Positions 15,828 to 25,541 of a DNA stretch of 64,000 bases are shown here, piece by piece. The stretch is from an uncultured Mucilaginibacter sp. (GTDB lineage: Bacteria; Bacteroidota; Bacteroidia; Sphingobacteriales; Sphingobacteriaceae). Numbering within the stretch: the stretch's first letter is position 1; every line of letters begins with the position of its first letter. A program made the translations under genes and the position numbers. The notes under the pieces are model-generated. The model saw only the letters and a program-made list of their open reading frames with translations, had not been told where the DNA came from and did no database searches. The stretch lies in NCBI GenBank assembly GCA_903863845.1, contig CAIPDP010000071.1, positions 27,617 through 91,616 of the forward strand, read 5' to 3'.

Positions 15828-17153
15828 TTAGTGCTTATCCTTAATATCGCGACCGAGGTAACTGGTTACACAACGGAAGCCTATATATGATTTTGCTGTA
15901 TCCTGGTATTCGTATGAACGTGATGAATTTTGCAGGAAATAACCCACATCTTTCCATGAACCACCGCGCACCACTTTACGTTTCAACACCGGCGGATCAT
16001 TTGGTTTGGCGTCGTAGCTATAATCTGGCGCCAGATCATGGGTAAAGGTAGAAGCTGATTCGTCATAGGCCGAGCTCGTCCATTCAGCAACGTTTCCTGC
16101 CATGTTATACAGACCATAATCATTCGGGAAATAAGAACGAACGTTTACAGTATATGCGCCACCGTCATCGGCATAATTACCACGACCCGGTTTGAAATTA
16201 GCCATCAGGCAACCCTTAGCATTTTTGATATATGGACCACCCCATGGATAGTCGGTACCAACCCTGCCACCACGAGCAGCGTATTCAAACTGTGCCTCGT
16301 TAGGCAAGCGATAGTATGAACGCGGCGGCAAACCGCGAGATTGTTTATAATTTTCGTTGTAACGGGTACGCCATACGTTAAAGGCCCTTGCCTGACGCCA
16401 GGTTACCCCAACAACAGGGTAGTTCCGGTAGGCAGGATGCGAAAAGTAACCTTCAACCATCGGTTCATTGGCGGCATATGAAAAATCACTCAGCCAAACC
16501 AGGGTATCCGGATAAACTGGTACAGTATCGCGAACAATGAAATCAGAACGTTTTTTTGATTTGTCATTATGGTAATCCGCAGCTTCGCGCAATGACACGG
16601 TAGAGAAGTTATATTTCAATAAACGTACATCCAGTTCGTTACGATCAAAAATCCTGTCATCGCCCTGGTAAAACATACCGGATAGCTTGGCGATGTTAGG
16701 ATTGTTTCCTTTTTTATTGGCATCGAACGATAGTGGATAATGCTTTACATAAGCCCAGTTAATATATTTTTTACCGTTATTTAAAGCATTTGAAGCTTTG
16801 GGTTTTAAGAAGTACTTAGGATCGTTCAGGTAATTAGTAATGGCTACCGAGTCGCGCACCCATTGTACAAATTGTTTGTACTTGGTATTGGAAACCTCGG
16901 TTTCGTCCATGAAAAACGCAGGTATCGTTACCTGTTTGGTTTGAGCTAATTGTGAAAAAGTAATATCCTGATCAGTTTGGCCCATTAAAAAGGTACCCGA
17001 TGGAATGTAAACCATTCCGTATGGCACCTCAGCTCTGAACGAGCGTTGTGCAATACCAGTTAATTCGCCTCTGTCACCACTACCCCTGCCCGCGCAACCG
17101 CTTAGCATGATGCCTACGGCTAAAACCATTATTAGATAGTAAATCTGCTTCAT
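15828..17153 (-). CDS. gldK: Gliding motility / T9SS lipoprotein GldK (FGE-sulfatase/SUMF1 fold)
   Basis: 441 aa. Lipobox LSGC, SUMF1-like segments (GMVYIPSGTFLMGQ, YPVVGVTWRQA, RGGSW, GFRCV). First gene of the gld string. Confidence 0.93.
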   Translation of the reverse strand: MKQIYYLIMVLAVGIMLSGCAGRGSGDRGELTGIAQRSFRAEVPYGMVYIPSGTFLMGQTDQDITFSQLAQTKQVTIPAFFMDETEVSNTKYKQFVQWVRDSVAITNYLNDPKYFLKPKASNALNNGKKYINWAYVKHYPLSFDANKKGNNPNIAKLSGMFYQGDDRIFDRNELDVRLLKYNFSTVSLREAADYHNDKSKKRSDFIVRDTVPVYPDTLVWLSDFSYAANEPMVEGYFSHPAYRNYPVVGVTWRQARAFNVWRTRYNENYKQSRGLPPRSYYRLPNEAQFEYAARGGRVGTDYPWGGPYIKNAKGCLMANFKPGRGNYADDGGAYTVNVRSYFPNDYGLYNMAGNVAEWTSSAYDESASTFTHDLAPDYSYDAKPNDPPVLKRKVVRGGSWKDVGYFLQNSSRSYEYQDTAKSYIGFRCVTSYLGRDIKDKH

Positions 17154-17301
17154 TTTTTAAATCAATCAGTTATTAAATTATAACGCAATATGACCTGTAC
17201 TAAGATATCAAATTACATTTAGTAAACCCAAAAATGTTTTTTAATTACAAACATTCTGCCACATTCGATAGCAAAAATATAAATTAATAGTTTATTGCCA
17301 T

Positions 17302-17343
17302 AAAAAAACGAAATAACTTATAATTAAGTATTTAGCTATTTCG
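17302..17343 (-). terminator. Rho-independent terminator after the HemD-like gene
   Basis: On the minus strand, CGAAATAGCT...AAGTTATTTCG forms a stem of about 10 bp including one G-U pair, followed by T7 (A7 at 17302-17308 on the plus strand). Confidence 0.65.
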
Positions 17344-17416
17344 GGCGCTATTTAACAGGCCATTATACGGTTTGCTGACTGTTAAAGTTGCATGCACCCC
17401 TATAAAATGCTATTAA

Positions 17417-18175
17417 TTATTTGTTTACCATCTTTACGTATTGCTCGATGGCCATCGTCATTGATGGAGCACCTGGCGTAGGTGCAGGGATATCTAAAAT
17501 AAGACCCGCGTCGAGCACAGCCTTGTGTGTAGTTGCCCCAAAAGCAGCTAAACGGGTATTGTTCTGTTTGAAATCCGGAAAATTCTTGTAAAGTGATTGT
17601 ATACTGGACGGACTGAAAAAGGCGATCACATCATAAAACACCTCGGCAAGATCCGACAAATCGCTGCAAACTGTACGGAAAAGTACTGCCGGCGTAAAAT
17701 TATAGCCATTATCAAGCAAAAATTTCTGCGTTTCTTCAGCAGCCACATCCGAACAAGGATATAAAAATTTTTCGCTTGAGTGTTTTTTGAGTACTTCAAC
17801 CAGGTCGGATGCCGTTTGTTTACCGAAGAATATCTTGCGCTTGCGGTATTGAATGTATTTTTGAAGGTATAAGGCGATCGTTTCGGAAAGACAGAAATAT
17901 TTCATGTCAACCGGCACTTCGAAACGCATTTCTTCGCAGATGCGGAAAAAATGATCGGCCGAGTTCCTGCTGGTAAAAATAACGGCAGAAAAATCCGCCA
18001 GGTTGATCTTCTCTTTCCTGAAATCTTTGGCAGGCACCCCCTCAACATGTATAAAAGAACGAAAATCGATCTTTAAATTATATTTCTTCGCCAATTCGGC
18101 GTAGGGGTTTTTGTCATTTTCGGGTTTGGGTAAGGTAACCAGAATACTTTTAACCTTTTTCTTTCTGTCTTCCAA
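17417..18175 (-). CDS. hemD: Uroporphyrinogen-III synthase (HemD)-family protein
   Basis: SILVTLPKPENDKNPYAELAKKYNLKIDFRSFIHVEG matches the usual N-terminus of Bacteroidota HemD-like proteins. The track ORF extends to a TTG at 18256 and overlaps the upstream gene by 55 nt. The TTG at 18175 gives MEDRKKKVKSILV and no overlap. The exact start is uncertain. Confidence 0.75.
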   Translation of the reverse strand: MEDRKKKVKSILVTLPKPENDKNPYAELAKKYNLKIDFRSFIHVEGVPAKDFRKEKINLADFSAVIFTSRNSADHFFRICEEMRFEVPVDMKYFCLSETIALYLQKYIQYRKRKIFFGKQTASDLVEVLKKHSSEKFLYPCSDVAAEETQKFLLDNGYNFTPAVLFRTVCSDLSDLAEVFYDVIAFFSPSSIQSLYKNFPDFKQNNTRLAAFGATTHKAVLDAGLILDIPAPTPGAPSMTMAIEQYVKMVNK

Positions 18176-18201
18176 AATTCTATACAATAAAAAGCCTACT
18201 C

Positions 18202-19176
18202 CTAAATATTCAGCGCCTTGATTAAAATCAATATGGGGCAGATTTCGAGGGCACAAAGATACACAATTAAATAAAATTTATAAAATAGAATGCTAGAAAT
18301 GATTTCTACGCTCCCGCGAAGGTATTGCCATACCACAATTGCAGCTATCAATACCCAGGCAAACAGCAAAACAAATCGTATCAGGGGATCAGGTAGCAGG
18401 CTAAAGCAGATAGAAACCGGCAGGAAAACAAAACCTATGTTAAAATAGGTGAGGTAGGAAACCGAAAGGTACTCGCTTACCAATTTATTGATCCCGAACA
18501 CGAACCCCAGGAATTTTACCAGTACAAACTTGACCGCAAAAAGCACGAGAATGATCAGCGTAAGCGAGATAAAAAGCGAGAACCCACTGACACTATAGTA
18601 ATAAACATGGCGGTAAACCGAAAACTGGTATAAGAACAAGCCAAAGGTGAGTGCAAACAGGAGGAATAATGCCAACAGTGTCCATGAGTTGATCACGCCA
18701 TCCTGTTTGCTGAGTTGATTCATTACCCGTTTACTGTAAAAGGACATCCATATACTTTCAAGGTCCTTGCTCATTACCCTATTTAAGATCGCAGCGTAAA
18801 TAAGCAAAGCCAGCAATACACCAATTACCCATGGATCGCGGGAGGTACGGCTACTACCCTCTTTTAGCGTACTTTTCGCAGTGGCGTGGATATCAAGGAA
18901 ATCGTTGCCTGTATACAGGACCCTTTTAAGCAATGTATCAACCAAAGCATCGTGCCGGCTTGCAGCTGCCGGCCTGATGAAAACGGTAGCCAGCGAATCC
19001 TGCACCATTTGCTCATGTTGCTGCAGTGATTGTGCGACAGAATCCAAAAAAGGCAGGCGATCATTAGGGATATGTCCGGCGACCGTATCTGCCCGATGCC
19101 CGGTCGACGTATCGGTCATGGCGAAAGCACCGTAACAAATCACCATTAAAAACAAACAAACCGCGATCAGACGCAT
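18202..19176 (-). CDS. DUF4271-type polytopic membrane protein
   Basis: 324 aa with a signal/anchor and about six C-terminal TM helices. The pairing with a downstream HemD-like gene matches a DUF4271-hemD arrangement as I recall it from Bacteroidota; this is not verified. Confidence 0.7.
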   Translation of the reverse strand: MRLIAVCLFLMVICYGAFAMTDTSTGHRADTVAGHIPNDRLPFLDSVAQSLQQHEQMVQDSLATVFIRPAAASRHDALVDTLLKRVLYTGNDFLDIHATAKSTLKEGSSRTSRDPWVIGVLLALLIYAAILNRVMSKDLESIWMSFYSKRVMNQLSKQDGVINSWTLLALFLLFALTFGLFLYQFSVYRHVYYYSVSGFSLFISLTLIILVLFAVKFVLVKFLGFVFGINKLVSEYLSVSYLTYFNIGFVFLPVSICFSLLPDPLIRFVLLFAWVLIAAIVVWQYLRGSVEIISSILFYKFYLIVYLCALEICPILILIKALNI

Positions 19177-19304: not shown

Positions 19305-21638
19305 TTATTTTTTGCGGTTACCTGCCAGCCTGTACAGCGTTGCGATCAACACATCAATTTCGGCACAAGTATTGTAAAAGGCCAGGGAAGGCCTGACAGT
19401 AGATTCAACCCCGAAACGTCTCAATATCGGCTGTGCACAATGATGACCCGACCGAACGGCTATGCCTTCTTTGTTCAATTCTGTCCCAACCTGCTCGGTG
19501 GTATAGCCATCGAGAACAAATGACATTACGCTTGCCTTGTCCGGAGCCGTACCGATCAGGTGCAGGCCGGGTACACTTTTTAATAATTGCGTAGCATAAA
19601 GCAACAGGTAATGTTCATATTGAGCGATGAGATCGATGCCTAATTTGCTGACATAATCCAGGGCGGCGCCTAAACCTACGGCATCTGCAATATTGCCGGT
19701 ACCTGCCTCAAAACGCAAGGGTGCTTTATGGTATTGGGTATATTCAAAGGTTACGTCTTTGATCATATTTCCCCCACCCTGCCAGGGCTCGGTCTCGTTC
19801 AATAAATCTTCTTTGCCATAAAGTACACCAATGCCGGTCGGACCAAAAACCTTGTGGCCCGAAAATACAAACCAATCGGGATCAAGCGCCCGAACGTCTG
19901 TACGGATATGTGATACCGATTGTGCACCATCCAACAACACCTTAGCACCGGCCTGGTGCGCCATGTCGATCACTTGTTTAGCAGGAGTTATGGTACCCAA
20001 TGCATTAGAAACCTGTGAAAAAGACACCAGTTTTGTTTTAGGTCCCAGTAATTTCGCGTATTCACCGAGTAGCAGCTGCCCGTCATCATCAACCGGGATG
20101 ACCCTTATCTTCAAACCTTTTTTTGCTGCCAGTTGCTGCCATGGAACAATGTTAGCATGATGCTCCAAATGGCTCAATATGATCTCGTCGCCAGGCTTCA
20201 GATTTTGTTCGCCCCAGCTTTTTGCTACCAGGTTGATGGCTTCAGTAGTACCGCGAACAAATACGATCTCATTGACGGAGCCGGCATTGATAAAGGTCTG
20301 GACCTTTTTCCGGGCATCCTCGTAGGCATCGGTGGCCCTTGCTGCCAGCTCGTGCGCTGCGCGGTGAACGTTTGAGTTTTCGTGCTCGTAAAAATAACTA
20401 ACCCGATCGATCACCTGCTTAGGTTTTTGTGTTGTGGCCGCGTTATCTAACCATATCAGCGGCTTGCCGTTAACGGTTTCTTGTAAGATCGGAAAATCGA
20501 GCTTTACGCGATTCACGTCAAATGTGCTGCCATCACTACTTTTGAATTCGTTCGGAACCAAACCTGCTGCCTGAACAAAAGTTTTTAAATGGTTTTTTTC
20601 GTTGAGAAAATAAAAGCTGCTTGCCGATGGTACAAAACCAGGCAACTGCGGTGCAAATGGAACTGATGGGATATTTTTTAAAAGATCGGTAAGCCCGGAG
20701 TCAAACGGCTGGCTTGAACCAAAGGGCAGGTAATCAAATGACGAAGGCAAGGCATAATTACTTTCGATGTCGAGCGGCGTTTTGCCACCGGGCAAAAAAG
20801 CGTTGATATCATTCAGATAAGATGCAAATTCGTTTTCAGACCCTGAATTGGCATTATTTGAGCCGTATTTCCGGGAGTTATTTGGATCCGGAAAACTGGT
20901 TTGCGGATTTGCCATATCAACCGCATTATGTTGTTCTACGGCCGAAGGGGATATGCCACTACCTGCAACTGACTCGGGAACATTGCCCAAACCTGTATCG
21001 TTTGCTCCCGGCAAACTGGGTGCATTGCCCGGTATTTGTTCAGCGTTTACCTGCTCCAAAGCCGAAGGGGATCTCCCTCCGCCAGCAACCGATTGTGGTA
21101 TATGACCGAGTCCCTGATGATTGGGATCAGGAAGGCTGGTTTGAGGATTTTTGATATCAACCCCATTGCCCTGATGACCTGCTGAAGGAGATATACCGCT
21201 GCCGGCTACCGACTGCGGAACTTCGTGTGAGCCAAAGGCACTTGTGCCGGATAAAAAACTATGTCCATCCCGCAGATCGATCGAATCAGGCAAAGGCGAG
21301 GCCGGAACAGATGCACCAACGCCACCCAATGCAGGCGGATTGAAACCCGATCCGGCCGGCAGTATAGGTTGCAAGCCGGGTATTGACTGGGGCGAATCAA
21401 TACCGTTAAGTACCGATCCTGCAGACGGTGGCAATGCAGCATAACCAGTTGAAGCCGGCAGATTACCTGCGCCAAGCGGGTTCGACTGGTTAATGTCAAA
21501 ACCTTGCGGCACTGCATAATTTCCAGTATTCAGCCCTGTTACGCTGGTATCACCAGGCAAGGCCTTGAAAAACTGGTTGGCCAGTTCCTGCAATTCGGCT
21601 ATACCCGGGAAACCTTCTGGTAAATCACTTGTAGTCAT
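19305..21638 (-). CDS. SufS-like cysteine desulfurase with a roughly 370-aa disordered N-terminal extension (predicted encapsulin cargo)
   Basis: The C-terminal ~400 aa is a class V aminotransferase. PLP lysine in FSGHKVFGP, catalytic cysteine in RSGHHCAQP, and WLDNAATTQKP. The N-terminal ~370 aa is Pro/Gly/Ser/Asn-rich and starts with the IAELQELANQFF motif. The gene overlaps the upstream shell gene. Confidence 0.9.
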   Translation of the reverse strand: MTTSDLPEGFPGIAELQELANQFFKALPGDTSVTGLNTGNYAVPQGFDINQSNPLGAGNLPASTGYAALPPSAGSVLNGIDSPQSIPGLQPILPAGSGFNPPALGGVGASVPASPLPDSIDLRDGHSFLSGTSAFGSHEVPQSVAGSGISPSAGHQGNGVDIKNPQTSLPDPNHQGLGHIPQSVAGGGRSPSALEQVNAEQIPGNAPSLPGANDTGLGNVPESVAGSGISPSAVEQHNAVDMANPQTSFPDPNNSRKYGSNNANSGSENEFASYLNDINAFLPGGKTPLDIESNYALPSSFDYLPFGSSQPFDSGLTDLLKNIPSVPFAPQLPGFVPSASSFYFLNEKNHLKTFVQAAGLVPNEFKSSDGSTFDVNRVKLDFPILQETVNGKPLIWLDNAATTQKPKQVIDRVSYFYEHENSNVHRAAHELAARATDAYEDARKKVQTFINAGSVNEIVFVRGTTEAINLVAKSWGEQNLKPGDEIILSHLEHHANIVPWQQLAAKKGLKIRVIPVDDDGQLLLGEYAKLLGPKTKLVSFSQVSNALGTITPAKQVIDMAHQAGAKVLLDGAQSVSHIRTDVRALDPDWFVFSGHKVFGPTGIGVLYGKEDLLNETEPWQGGGNMIKDVTFEYTQYHKAPLRFEAGTGNIADAVGLGAALDYVSKLGIDLIAQYEHYLLLYATQLLKSVPGLHLIGTAPDKASVMSFVLDGYTTEQVGTELNKEGIAVRSGHHCAQPILRRFGVESTVRPSLAFYNTCAEIDVLIATLYRLAGNRKK

Positions 21639-22790: not shown

Positions 22791-25541
22791 ATGCGGCGGA
22801 TGCTCGTACTCTTATTGATTGCCATTAGCAGTGATGTTACTGCCCAGTTAAAAGTGGATATTGTTCTATGTGAGAATAAACCGCATCCGCTTGGCGTTTC
22901 CTGTAAAAGTCTTCATTTCGGTTGGGAAATCAGTTCGCCGAAAAATTCAGCAAAACAAAGTGCTTTCGAACTGGTTATTTCGAGTTCTGAAAAAAATTCC
23001 GAACACGGAATATATGATGTTTGGAACTCTTCTGTTGTTAACAGCAAGCAATCGGTATTGGTAGCTTACCGGGGAAAAATATTACGGTCGGCCACCCAGT
23101 ATTATTGGAAAGTGAAAGTTTGGGATCAATTTGGCAAGCCATCCAAATGGAGCAAACTATCGTCTTTTTGTACCGGTTTGGAAAACAAAAGTGATTGGAA
23201 CCAGGCCCGCTGGATCGGATACGAGGGCCTTGCGGATTCGCTGCGTTTAGCCCCCGGGGCTGATGACTCAAATGCTGATAAAATCAAAAACAACCCCCTG
23301 AAAAGGCCCGTTACCCCACTTATCAGAAAAGAATTTAAAATCGCCAAAACGGTCAAAAGTGCCTACGCATTTATCAGCGGGCTCGGTCAGTACGAACTTC
23401 TCATTAATGGCAAAAAAGCAAGCAATGGCTTTTTGACACCCGGTTGGACCTACTATGATAAAAGTTGCCTTTATAATGTGCTTGACATTACACCGCTATT
23501 AAAAAATGGCAATAATTGTATTGGCGCGATTCTGGGTAATGGCTTTTTTAACATCAACCGCGAACGGTATTCTAAATTGGTCGATGCATTTGGAATGCCG
23601 AAAATGATCTGCCGGGTGCTGATCCGTTATAACGATGGCACTGAAAGCGACCTTTGCAGCGATGCCAGCTGGAAAGTATCTCCATCGGCCATATTGTTTA
23701 ATAGCATATACGGCGGCGAAGACTATGATGCAAACCTTGAACAGGGGCATTGGGCCGAACCGGGATTTGACGACAGGCATTGGAAAAATACAGAATTGGT
23801 AAAGGCTCCGGCAGGTCATCTGTTAGCCGACATGGATTACCCTGTAGCAGTGATGGACACTTTCCAGGTTAAAAAGATAACGGAACCTGCACCAGGCATT
23901 TTTGTTTATGATTTTGGGCAAAATTCCTCCGGAATCGTAGCGCTGAAGATCAGGGGACATAAAGGGCAAAAGGTTAAACTGATCCCGGCGGAGATATTAA
24001 ACCAGGAAAAACTGGCCAATCAAAATGCTACCGGTAATCCCTATTATTTCTCTTATATTATTAAAAGCGACAGCACCGAAACCTGGGTGCCCCAATTTAC
24101 TTACTATGGATTCAGGTATGTGCAGGTTGAAGGTGCGCGGCCGGATACTTCAGTTTCAAATTATCTTCCGGTTATTTTACAACTTACTGCCCTTCATACA
24201 CGTAATGCTGGACCTTCCAATGGCTCATTTGAATGCTCGAACGAGCTATTTAACCGGATTTTTACCCTGATCAACTGGGCTATCAAAAGCAATTTACAAA
24301 GTGTAGTAACCGATTGCCCTCACCGCGAAAAACTAGGATGGCTAGAACAGGACTATTTAATGGGTACTTCAATCCATTATAATTTTGACAATTATAGTTT
24401 ATATCGCAAACTTGTTTTTGACCTGATGGATGCCCAGCAGGCAAACGGCCTTGTACCAGACATTGCCCCGGAATATGTACAGTTTGACGGCGGCTTTCGT
24501 GATTCGCCCGAATGGGGCAGCAGTTCAGTAATACTACCCTGGCTTTTATATCAATGGAATGGCGACCGCGACATCGTTGAAAAAGCTTTCCCGATGATTA
24601 AAAAATACGTTGCTTACCTGGAAAGTAAATCAAATCATCATATCCTTGACTACGGCTTAGGCGACTGGTACGACTATGGCCCTGCAGCCCCGGGTTATGC
24701 GCAGTTAACCCCGCGGGCGCTGACAGCAACTGCTATTTATTATGATGATGTAGTGCTTGCCGGTAAAATGGCGGCGGTACTGAAACGATACCGGGATGAA
24801 AAAGCGTTTGATGATCTGGCTGGCCAAATTAAACTCGCTTTTAACAATCGTTTTTTTGACACGGCTACTAACACCTATTCCACTGGCAGTCAAACCGCTA
24901 TGGCAATGCCGCTAAGCGTAGGTTTGGTTAATGAAAAAAATCGCCGCGTGGTTTTACAAAACCTGGTCGACTCTATCAAAACCCATCATTACGCGCTGAC
25001 TGCCGGGGATATTGGTTTCCATTTTTTAGTAGATGCATTGGATAAGGGTGAACGGGGGCAGATTATTTACGATATGAATAACCGCGACAATGTGCCGGGC
25101 TATGGTTACCAGTTGAAAAAAGGAGCAACCTCCTTAACCGAATCCTGGGCCGCACTGGAAGAAGTGTCCAACAATCACTTGATGCTCGGACATATCATGG
25201 AGTGGTTTTATAGCGGATTGGCAGGCATCAGCCAGGAAAGCGGTTCGGTAGGTTTTCAAACACTTAAAATCAAACCCCAACCTGTAGGCGATATCAATTA
25301 TGCCAAAGGAAGTTTTCATACCCCTTATGGCTGGGTAAAAACATCCTGGACCAAAAACAAGGGCAGTTTCCGGTTAAAGGTTGAAATCCCCGCAAATTCG
25401 AATGCAAATATCTATCTTCCAGCACATAGGTATTCAAAAATATACGAGAACAATAAATTAGTCAGAAAAATGGGCTCGTATGAAAACGGCAGGGCAATGC
25501 TAAGTGTTGCATCGGGCATTTATCAGTTTGAGGTTAAATAA
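22791..25541 (+). CDS. Alpha-L-rhamnosidase (glycoside hydrolase family 78)
   Basis: 916 aa with a signal peptide. N-terminal rhamnosidase domain (QYYWKVKVWD, ARWIGY) and catalytic (alpha/alpha)6 region with DCPHREKLGWLEQDY. Confidence 0.9.
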   Translation: MRRMLVLLLIAISSDVTAQLKVDIVLCENKPHPLGVSCKSLHFGWEISSPKNSAKQSAFELVISSSEKNSEHGIYDVWNSSVVNSKQSVLVAYRGKILRSATQYYWKVKVWDQFGKPSKWSKLSSFCTGLENKSDWNQARWIGYEGLADSLRLAPGADDSNADKIKNNPLKRPVTPLIRKEFKIAKTVKSAYAFISGLGQYELLINGKKASNGFLTPGWTYYDKSCLYNVLDITPLLKNGNNCIGAILGNGFFNINRERYSKLVDAFGMPKMICRVLIRYNDGTESDLCSDASWKVSPSAILFNSIYGGEDYDANLEQGHWAEPGFDDRHWKNTELVKAPAGHLLADMDYPVAVMDTFQVKKITEPAPGIFVYDFGQNSSGIVALKIRGHKGQKVKLIPAEILNQEKLANQNATGNPYYFSYIIKSDSTETWVPQFTYYGFRYVQVEGARPDTSVSNYLPVILQLTALHTRNAGPSNGSFECSNELFNRIFTLINWAIKSNLQSVVTDCPHREKLGWLEQDYLMGTSIHYNFDNYSLYRKLVFDLMDAQQANGLVPDIAPEYVQFDGGFRDSPEWGSSSVILPWLLYQWNGDRDIVEKAFPMIKKYVAYLESKSNHHILDYGLGDWYDYGPAAPGYAQLTPRALTATAIYYDDVVLAGKMAAVLKRYRDEKAFDDLAGQIKLAFNNRFFDTATNTYSTGSQTAMAMPLSVGLVNEKNRRVVLQNLVDSIKTHHYALTAGDIGFHFLVDALDKGERGQIIYDMNNRDNVPGYGYQLKKGATSLTESWAALEEVSNNHLMLGHIMEWFYSGLAGISQESGSVGFQTLKIKPQPVGDINYAKGSFHTPYGWVKTSWTKNKGSFRLKVEIPANSNANIYLPAHRYSKIYENNKLVRKMGSYENGRAMLSVASGIYQFEVK

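Follow-up and report, generated by a model that had tools for sequence, protein, structure and literature searches.

The cargo gene of a family 2A encapsulin system from an uncultured Mucilaginibacter sp. codes for a cysteine desulfurase whose long N-terminal tail contains three tandem units of exactly 40 residues, all copies of one bipartite module. The gene was analysed within a 64,000-nucleotide stretch of DNA (contig CAIPDP010000071.1, positions 27,617 to 91,616; hereafter the window), where it lies next to the gene of its own shell. The units belong to a tail predicted to be disordered; they are older than the species compared, are kept by purifying selection on the peptide, differ in copy number among related proteins and, in the sets searched, are restricted to cargo desulfurases of the Bacteroidota. 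We consider it reasonably probable that they dock the cargo to the inside of the shell through redundant, multivalent contacts, the shell being their presumed partner.

A first-pass annotation of this DNA, made from the letters alone, had reported three 40-residue repeats starting at residues 140, 180 and 220 and had placed them at 20871-21230. In the translated open reading frame (ORF) the motifs VPQSVAGSGISPSA, IPQSVAGGGRSPSA and VPESVAGSGISPSA are found exactly at these residues; the interval itself, which corresponds to residues 137-256, covers the same stretch and is shifted by 3 residues. For the VAGSG core, the codons given in the annotation match the sequence exactly, and the string NPQTS(L/F)PDPN is indeed common to units 1 and 3. 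Pairwise identity between the units is 52/65/42 % for the protein and 52/63/52 % for the DNA, and Tandem Repeats Finder reported no repeat at the DNA level. When residues 1-370 are compared with themselves, the best ungapped diagonals score 214 at offset 40, 192 at offset 80 and 71 at offset 120, against a mean of 38.2 (sd 5.3, maximum 57) in 200 shuffles; the 40-residue repeat is far beyond chance. When the genome of the window was searched for the module, the array proved to be its sole occurrence.

The unit was described with a profile hidden Markov model (HMM) made from 247 units (231 distinct), picked with a loose regular expression from the window protein and its 120 best homologues. The profile matches across all 40 positions and not just the 14-residue motif. 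Each unit starts with a core A, [VI]-P-x-S-V-A-G-S-G-x-S-P-S-A, in which most of the 14 positions are 89-100 % conserved among the 231 distinct units, positions 2, 4 and 7 being fixed by the picking expression and the others free. Six variable residues follow, then a block B, [VF]-D-[IL]-x-N-P-Q-T-S-L-P-D-P-[HN], conserved at 36-66 % per position, and finally about five residues, often G-x-G, that lead to the next unit. The units can thus be described as copies of a 40-residue bipartite module with a near-invariant core A and a moderately conserved block B; in the middle unit block B has diverged, and a GGG[KR] variant of its own is kept in the orthologues. In alignment A1, 5 of the 22 rows begin with M, a leading GTG having been read as start codon, which affects profile column 1 only. 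We define the module as at least one profile-matching unit, with the core [VI]PxSVAGSGxSPSA, located between the LANxFF and YYFL motifs known from other cargos of this family; all three units of the window match the profile, and their array (residues 140-259) lies between a LANxFF motif at residues 13-25 and a YYFL motif at residues 340-346.

Synonymous differences between the units are saturated, the proportion of differing synonymous sites (pS) being 0.72-0.86 over 36 codons and 0.68-0.81 in the 14-codon core, and the corresponding nonsynonymous proportion (pN) in the core is only 0.03-0.15. When the window gene is compared with three orthologues that also have three units, synonymous sites are saturated throughout, and pN is 0.056, 0.121 and 0.086 for core A, 0.037, 0.076 and 0.072 for the catalytic domain and 0.19-0.55 for the rest of the N-terminal tail. 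Core A changes as little as the catalytic domain, and the peptide is under purifying selection. In a maximum-likelihood tree built from the 36 units of 12 three-unit proteins, the units group by position: the second units form one clade (u2, support 100/99) and the third units another (u3, 98/93), with 2 label changes, the minimum possible, against a mean of 17.6 after shuffling (0/200 shuffles as low). Since the units group by position, the three copies are older than the species concerned and have been kept apart. The saturated synonymous sites, the low core pN and the clustering by position bear out the proposal of the first-pass annotation that the repeat owes its maintenance to selection at the peptide level rather than to a recent duplication of the DNA; a recent duplication in the window array is ruled out by the first and the last of these. 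Homogenisation between units occurs now and then: in a Mucilaginibacter orthologue from a metagenome-assembled genome (L002:3501-3860), units 1 and 3 are identical but for one mismatch along about 85 nucleotides, between flanks that are unrelated, which is a recent gene conversion inside the array, and in the tree unit 1 of this protein is placed beside the u3 clade. Copy number shifts by whole units, as seen in the relative L004, whose extra unit appears as an exact 40-residue alignment gap.

A search with residues 1-375 retrieved 344 proteins at E<=0.001; the homologue figures given here rest on the best 120 of these matches plus the window protein, 121 proteins in total. All 13 organism-labelled homologues among the matches listed are Bacteroidota, namely Mucilaginibacter, Ferruginibacter, Chitinophaga, Flectobacillus, Danxiaibacter, Cytophagales and Sphingobacteriales. 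Each of the 121 proteins has one or more units with an independent E-value (i-E) below 1e-3. Five proteins have one unit, 29 have two, 44 three, 27 four, 11 five and 5 six, so that three is the mode (44/121); some of the units counted are partial, and because the set was chosen by likeness to the tail these figures are not unbiased frequencies. Neighbouring units are spaced by exactly 40 residues in 138 of 267 pairs and by 39-41 in 208. Conservation in orthologues, which had been put forward as a check on the repeat, was found both in all 121 proteins and in cargo genes located beside shells.

The latter were approached from the shell side, by searching samples of 401 genomes each from the phylum and the class for the shell family. 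Six genomes (G000, G047, G159, G195, G448 and G473) have a family 2A shell that is uninterrupted and exceeds the cut-off, and in five of these the gene adjoining the shell carries the module; in the sixth, G047, the cargo tail contains a single degenerate copy, SPVSGFGVSPSV, missed by the unit profile. In the class sample the shell was found in none of the 5 further members of the genus to which G000 belongs and in none of 12 of its family, a sporadic occurrence of the encapsulin system that suggests gain by horizontal transfer or frequent loss. The unit profile was also run against 1.84 billion representative proteins and gave 56 matches at E<=0.001, 54 of them new: 8 have an Aminotran_5 domain, 44 are short pieces without a Pfam domain, one is a chance match to Calx-beta and one is weak and of low complexity. 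A LANxFF-type motif was found by regular expression within the first 80 residues of 39 of the 54, and no other enzyme family carries the module among the 56 matches.

Outside the Bacteroidota, cargos beside family 2A shells were taken from plasmid records of Synechococcus elongatus (pANL), Acinetobacter baumannii, Variovorax, Azospirillum, Aliarcobacter, Ralstonia, Paraburkholderia and Methylosinus; in a ninth record, of Nonomuraea, no cargo ORF was found. The unit profile has no match in the five of these eight cargos searched with it (best i-E 3.8-4.8), and none of the eight tails contains a self-repeat of comparable strength, the best self-scores being 26-77 with shuffle maxima of 45-70. 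The organism labels of the 13 homologues, the named loci among the 6 recovered with the 120-residue array and the absence from these eight cargos together indicate that the module is confined to Bacteroidota cargo desulfurases. A VAGxG motif shared with proteobacteria was considered on account of PHAVAGNGVPD in Variovorax and rejected, the Paraburkholderia counterpart being PHAAAQNGLPD.

Two of these cargos have paired motifs of other kinds. The cyd gene product of S. elongatus pANL (L028:4156-6036) contains two LANxFF-like copies, ERSLEQLTQTVLQD and ERSLAQLAQAVLQD, 63 residues apart, and the A. baumannii cargo has two YYFL-type motifs; the portions of the literature on these systems that were consulted make no mention of either pair.

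Among shells of the other subfamily, family-2B-like proteins (family f24, loci L017-L024) were found in the phylum sample in 45 of 87 genomes of one Bacteroidota family; their match to the model is split at position 48/49, their open frames are about 476-547 residues long and there are usually two matches per genome. The 40-residue module is absent from these genomes of the phylum sample. In Larkinella humicola (L007) no shell ORF of at least 250 residues lies upstream of the cargo gene, unlike in the sister locus L006, and the shell gene may be frameshifted or interrupted.

The identification of the window gene itself relies on profile matches and on the adjacent shell gene. Its 777-residue product scores 881.6 bits (cut-off 800) on NF041166, the NCBIfam model named 'family 2A encapsulin nanocompartment cargo protein cysteine desulfurase', and has a complete Aminotran_5 domain (Pfam) at residues 395-764 (E 1.4e-144). 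The alignment with NF041166 is limited to residues 332-771 (profile positions 187-623); thus, the N-terminal third of the cargo differs from the tails behind this model. The shell gene lies directly upstream and its stop overlaps the cargo start by 14 nucleotides; its product scores 534 bits on NF041162 (cut-off 380) and matches the PDB entries 8t6r and 6x8m with E about 1e-153. The match to the 2A model is uninterrupted over 1-295, the insertion of 2B shells being absent, and F263 and Y274, invariant in 14/14 shells, align with F262 and Y273 of SrpI, the S. elongatus shell. With a score above the NF041166 cut-off, a SufS-type domain, an adjoining shell gene and a disordered N-terminal domain containing both motif classes, the gene is, as far as sequence can tell, a family 2A encapsulin cargo cysteine desulfurase next to its own shell gene, in agreement with the original proposal.

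The tail was modelled with AlphaFold2 on a 59-sequence alignment. The predicted local distance difference test (pLDDT) is below 50 over residues 32-364, and residues 26-269, which include the array, are without secondary structure; conversely, the catalytic domain is well folded, with pLDDT mostly 70-95. The model agrees with the earlier assignment of the repeat region as disordered. A folded repeat domain was ruled out by pLDDT values of about 26-35 and the lack of secondary structure over residues 60-259, and as AlphaFold2 predicts no fold across the array the units are best regarded as linear motifs in a disordered tail. Residues 1-370 match no Pfam family at E<=10 and contain no cysteine, and the unit profile has no significant match in the PDB, the best (E 0.49) being a chance 8-residue identity with PsbX. 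The two motif classes LARLANEFFS and AASPYYFLDG, defined for other cargos of this type (Nichols 2021, PMC8049743), are represented by ELQELANQFFKAL and SASSFYFLNE, respectively; L19, A20, N21 and F24 of the former hardly vary in alignment A3.

The array is probably longer than three units. In a MAFFT alignment with four Mucilaginibacter orthologues, residues 60-99 and 100-139 align without gaps with units 76 and 116 of L004, a relative with six units, with 14 of 40 residues identical in each case; the two partner units score 41 and 33 bits on the unit profile. The self-score of 71 at offset 120 is above the shuffle maximum of 57, and residues 56, 176 and 216 mark G-x-G-x-h-P unit junctions. 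The two segments would thus be decayed units in the same register, a status given as probable because taken alone they reach 2.5-3.0 bits on the unit HMM.

Parallels come from published family 2A systems. In one of them, SrpI/CyD of S. elongatus, which agrees with the window in its gene pair, its SufS-type cargo and its disordered N-terminal loading domain, cargo density was seen on the inner face of the shell at the threefold axis, near F262 and Y273 (Nichols 2021, PMC8049743). CyD and the window cargo have in common the LARLANEFFS-type and AASPYYFLDG-type motifs (residues 13-27 and 338-347 in the latter), and the window shell is 73 % identical to SrpI, with the threefold-site residues conserved. 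However, CyD has no unit-profile match (best i-E 4.8), and its sole internal repeat is a weak LANxFF-like duplication, with a self-score of 55 (shuffle maximum 45); for the window cargo the two values are 214 and 57.

In A. baumannii the cargo-loading domain is reported to contain five short conserved motifs, and three unconnected densities at threefold and fivefold regions of the shell led to a model in which such motifs bind discontiguously through linkers, 'reminiscent of CsoS2' (Benisch 2024, PMC10836720). The window tail fits the same model of short motifs in a disordered domain rich in Pro, Gly and Ser, with discontiguous shell contacts and flexible linkers, but the five motifs are described as mutually different and not as a tandem array, although one of those shown as logos in fig. 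S6A may distantly resemble the unit. The word 'repeat' has 0 occurrences in the main text and supplement of that paper, and the A. baumannii cargo of the plasmid record has no unit match. For Mmp1/Enc-CD of Mycobacterium smegmatis, single motifs are reported to fail, whereas the leading and the middle region of the tail are each sufficient for loading, which indicates redundant multivalent binding; this tail is shorter (155 residues), its motifs are distinct and no tandem repeat is reported in the sections consulted (Tang 2024, PMC11659603).

Repetition of loading motifs is known from family 2B, where terpene-cyclase cargos are described with glycine-rich motifs repeated in a disordered region and with redundant binding: the loading domains of 2-MIBS contain multiple GPxGLGT motifs and in GeoA the loading peptide occurs as two repeats (PMC11071394, PMC13739066). 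For 2B, too, the reported density lies at the threefold axis, above hydrophobic residues that are conserved in the shell. However, the shell subfamily, the cargo enzyme and the motif are different, and the accounts consulted describe neither a regular 40-residue period nor a bipartite unit. The regular expression GP.G.GT has no match in the window cargo, which has neither the GPxGLGT nor the GPxGxGTxxL motif of 2B; the GLG[HN][IV]P unit junctions faintly resemble GPxGLGT. A similar way of working is found in CsoS2 of alpha-carboxysomes, a disordered protein with short motifs in repeated copies, through which it attaches to the inside of the shell. The two are not homologous, no Pfam family being matched by the window tail at E<=10, and CsoS2 is a dedicated scaffold whereas the tail studied here is part of a cargo enzyme.

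The first-pass annotation had regarded a repeated motif of this kind as not described for family 2A cargo. This stands for the module: full-text searches found no paper that joins encapsulin, desulfurase and tandem repeat, nor one that joins encapsulin, cargo-loading domain and multivalent, and in the family 2A papers (Nichols 2021; Benisch 2024; Tang 2024), in the parts drawn on here, the motifs are distinct and number two, five or three to eight, with no tandem array described. It does not extend to the principle, since repeated loading motifs have been published for 2B and multi-motif, discontiguous binding for 2A. The use of several short, redundant and sometimes repeated loading motifs in family 2 tails is already published, and the module is a lineage-specific variation on a known loading system that leaves the picture of what the system is unchanged.

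A docking role at the shell, the reading we favour, is proposed because the middle of the tail is built of a conserved module, the shell keeps F263 and Y274, and published tails bind in a like manner. The selection on core A, the specificity of the module for cargo desulfurases, its presence next to five of the six shells and the predicted disorder of the tail also speak for it. Each module would act as a short linear docking element on a conserved patch of the inner shell, and several weak, redundant contacts would add up, so that the enzyme is loaded and held. Several points weigh against it. The window cargo also has the universal LANxFF and YYFL motifs, and loading might be accomplished by these alone. 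The shell residues of the published threefold site are unchanged in lineages whose cargo lacks the module, and no lineage-specific site was identified; 13 shell positions are specific to Bacteroidota. The presence of the module in 121/121 proteins is partly circular, as the homologues were found by similarity of the N-terminal domain and the profile derives from units picked by a regular expression, and the single degenerate copy in G047 means that the module is not needed by every Bacteroidota system. The suggestion that three repeats match the threefold symmetry of the shell is not supported in its strict form: copy number varies from 1 to 6 among relatives, three being the mode, and the window cargo probably has three good and two degenerate units. 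A bolder version of shell binding, which we regard as unlikely, would see in the module a bipartite shell-threading unit whose period matches the spacing of equivalent inner sites of the T=1 shell, the tail, no longer just a passive tag, acting as a CsoS2-type thread that helps to nucleate or stabilise the assembling shell and the copy number setting the number of enzymes per shell.

A near-invariant core implies a specific partner without naming it, and the units could bind something other than the shell, such as further cargo molecules (with condensation before or during assembly), the desulfurase domain or a sulfur acceptor. Cargo condensation had already been suggested in the first-pass annotation. 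The tail is multivalent and disordered, as in scaffold-driven condensates. We nevertheless hold a non-shell partner to be improbable: in three family 2A systems the N-terminal domain alone is reported to carry green fluorescent protein into shells (PMC8049743, PMC11659603), extra density is described on the inner face of the shell (PMC10836720, PMC8049743), and no separate partner gene is found beside the pair in the window, where the neighbours code for DUF4271, HemD, FGE-sulfatase-type and rhamnosidase proteins.

The very regular period and the change of copy number by whole units, exemplified by the gap in the alignment with L004, would also be expected of a spacer, that is, of an array serving mainly as a tether between the shell-bound LANxFF and YYFL motifs and the enzyme, without specific contacts of the units. 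A spacer, however, needs neither a 14-residue core conserved to the degree found here nor a pN as low as that of the catalytic domain, and disordered linkers are described as normally keeping composition and not sequence (Nichols 2021, PMC8049743); we give this explanation little credence. Even less probable is a function of the modules in the sulfur chemistry inside the shell, for example in templating or nucleating stored sulfur. Desulfurase encapsulins are reported to store elemental sulfur (Benisch 2024, PMC10836720) and the tail lines the lumen, but residues 1-370 are devoid of cysteine, removal of the tail is reported to have left the catalytic rate unchanged in M. smegmatis (Tang 2024, PMC11659603), and proteobacterial systems that store sulfur lack the module.

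Loading in family 2 has so far been understood in terms of blurry density and 'several weak motifs', and the publications drawn on describe no atomic model of the contact between tail and shell. With its sharply delimited core of 14 residues and the adjoining block B, present naturally in 1-6 copies at near-fixed spacing, the module offers a ready-made series that could address how the number of motifs sets the cargo load, where on the shell the motif binds, for which a homogeneous repeated ligand might give better density, and whether it lends itself to a compact loading tag of tunable strength for engineered nanocompartments.

Features of the shell-cargo pair, in positions of the window
Feature	Position	Strand	Supporting evidence
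Shell gene, family 2A encapsulin shell, 305 aa	21625..22542	-	NF041162, Pfam SrpI-like
Cargo gene, family 2A encapsulin cargo cysteine desulfurase, 777 aa	19305..21638	-	NF041166, Aminotran_5
N-terminal LANxFF-type motif, aa 13-25, IAELQELANQFFK	21564..21602	-	AlphaFold2 helix 13-25
Two probable degenerate units, aa 60-99 and 100-139, same 40-aa register	21222..21461	-	MAFFT alignment with L004
Repeat unit 1, aa 140-179, core A VPQSVAGSGISPSA and block B VDIKNPQTSLPDPNH	21102..21221	-	unit HMM 70.1 bits
Repeat unit 2, aa 180-219, core A IPQSVAGGGRSPSA, block B diverged	20982..21101	-	unit HMM 43.7 bits
Repeat unit 3, aa 220-259, core A VPESVAGSGISPSA and block B VDMANPQTSFPDPNN	20862..20981	-	unit HMM 64.2 bits
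YYFL-type motif, aa 340-346, SSFYFLN, preceding the catalytic domain	20601..20621	-	Y343 and F344 invariant in alignment A3
SufS-type catalytic domain, aa 371-777	19308..20528	-	PDB 8kg1, 612 bits over residues 371-772

As regards its genomic setting, the shell-cargo pair of the window stands alone, its neighbours (15828-19176 and 22791-25541) being an FGE-sulfatase-type gene, HemD, DUF4271 and an alpha-L-rhamnosidase; at the cyanobacterial and proteobacterial loci examined the pair is flanked by cysE/epsC, cysK or rhodanese genes. Two antisense ORFs overlap the repeat region on the forward strand, at 20822-21154 (110 residues) and 20848-21105 (85 residues), and both look like by-products of a repetitive, GC-balanced coding strand.

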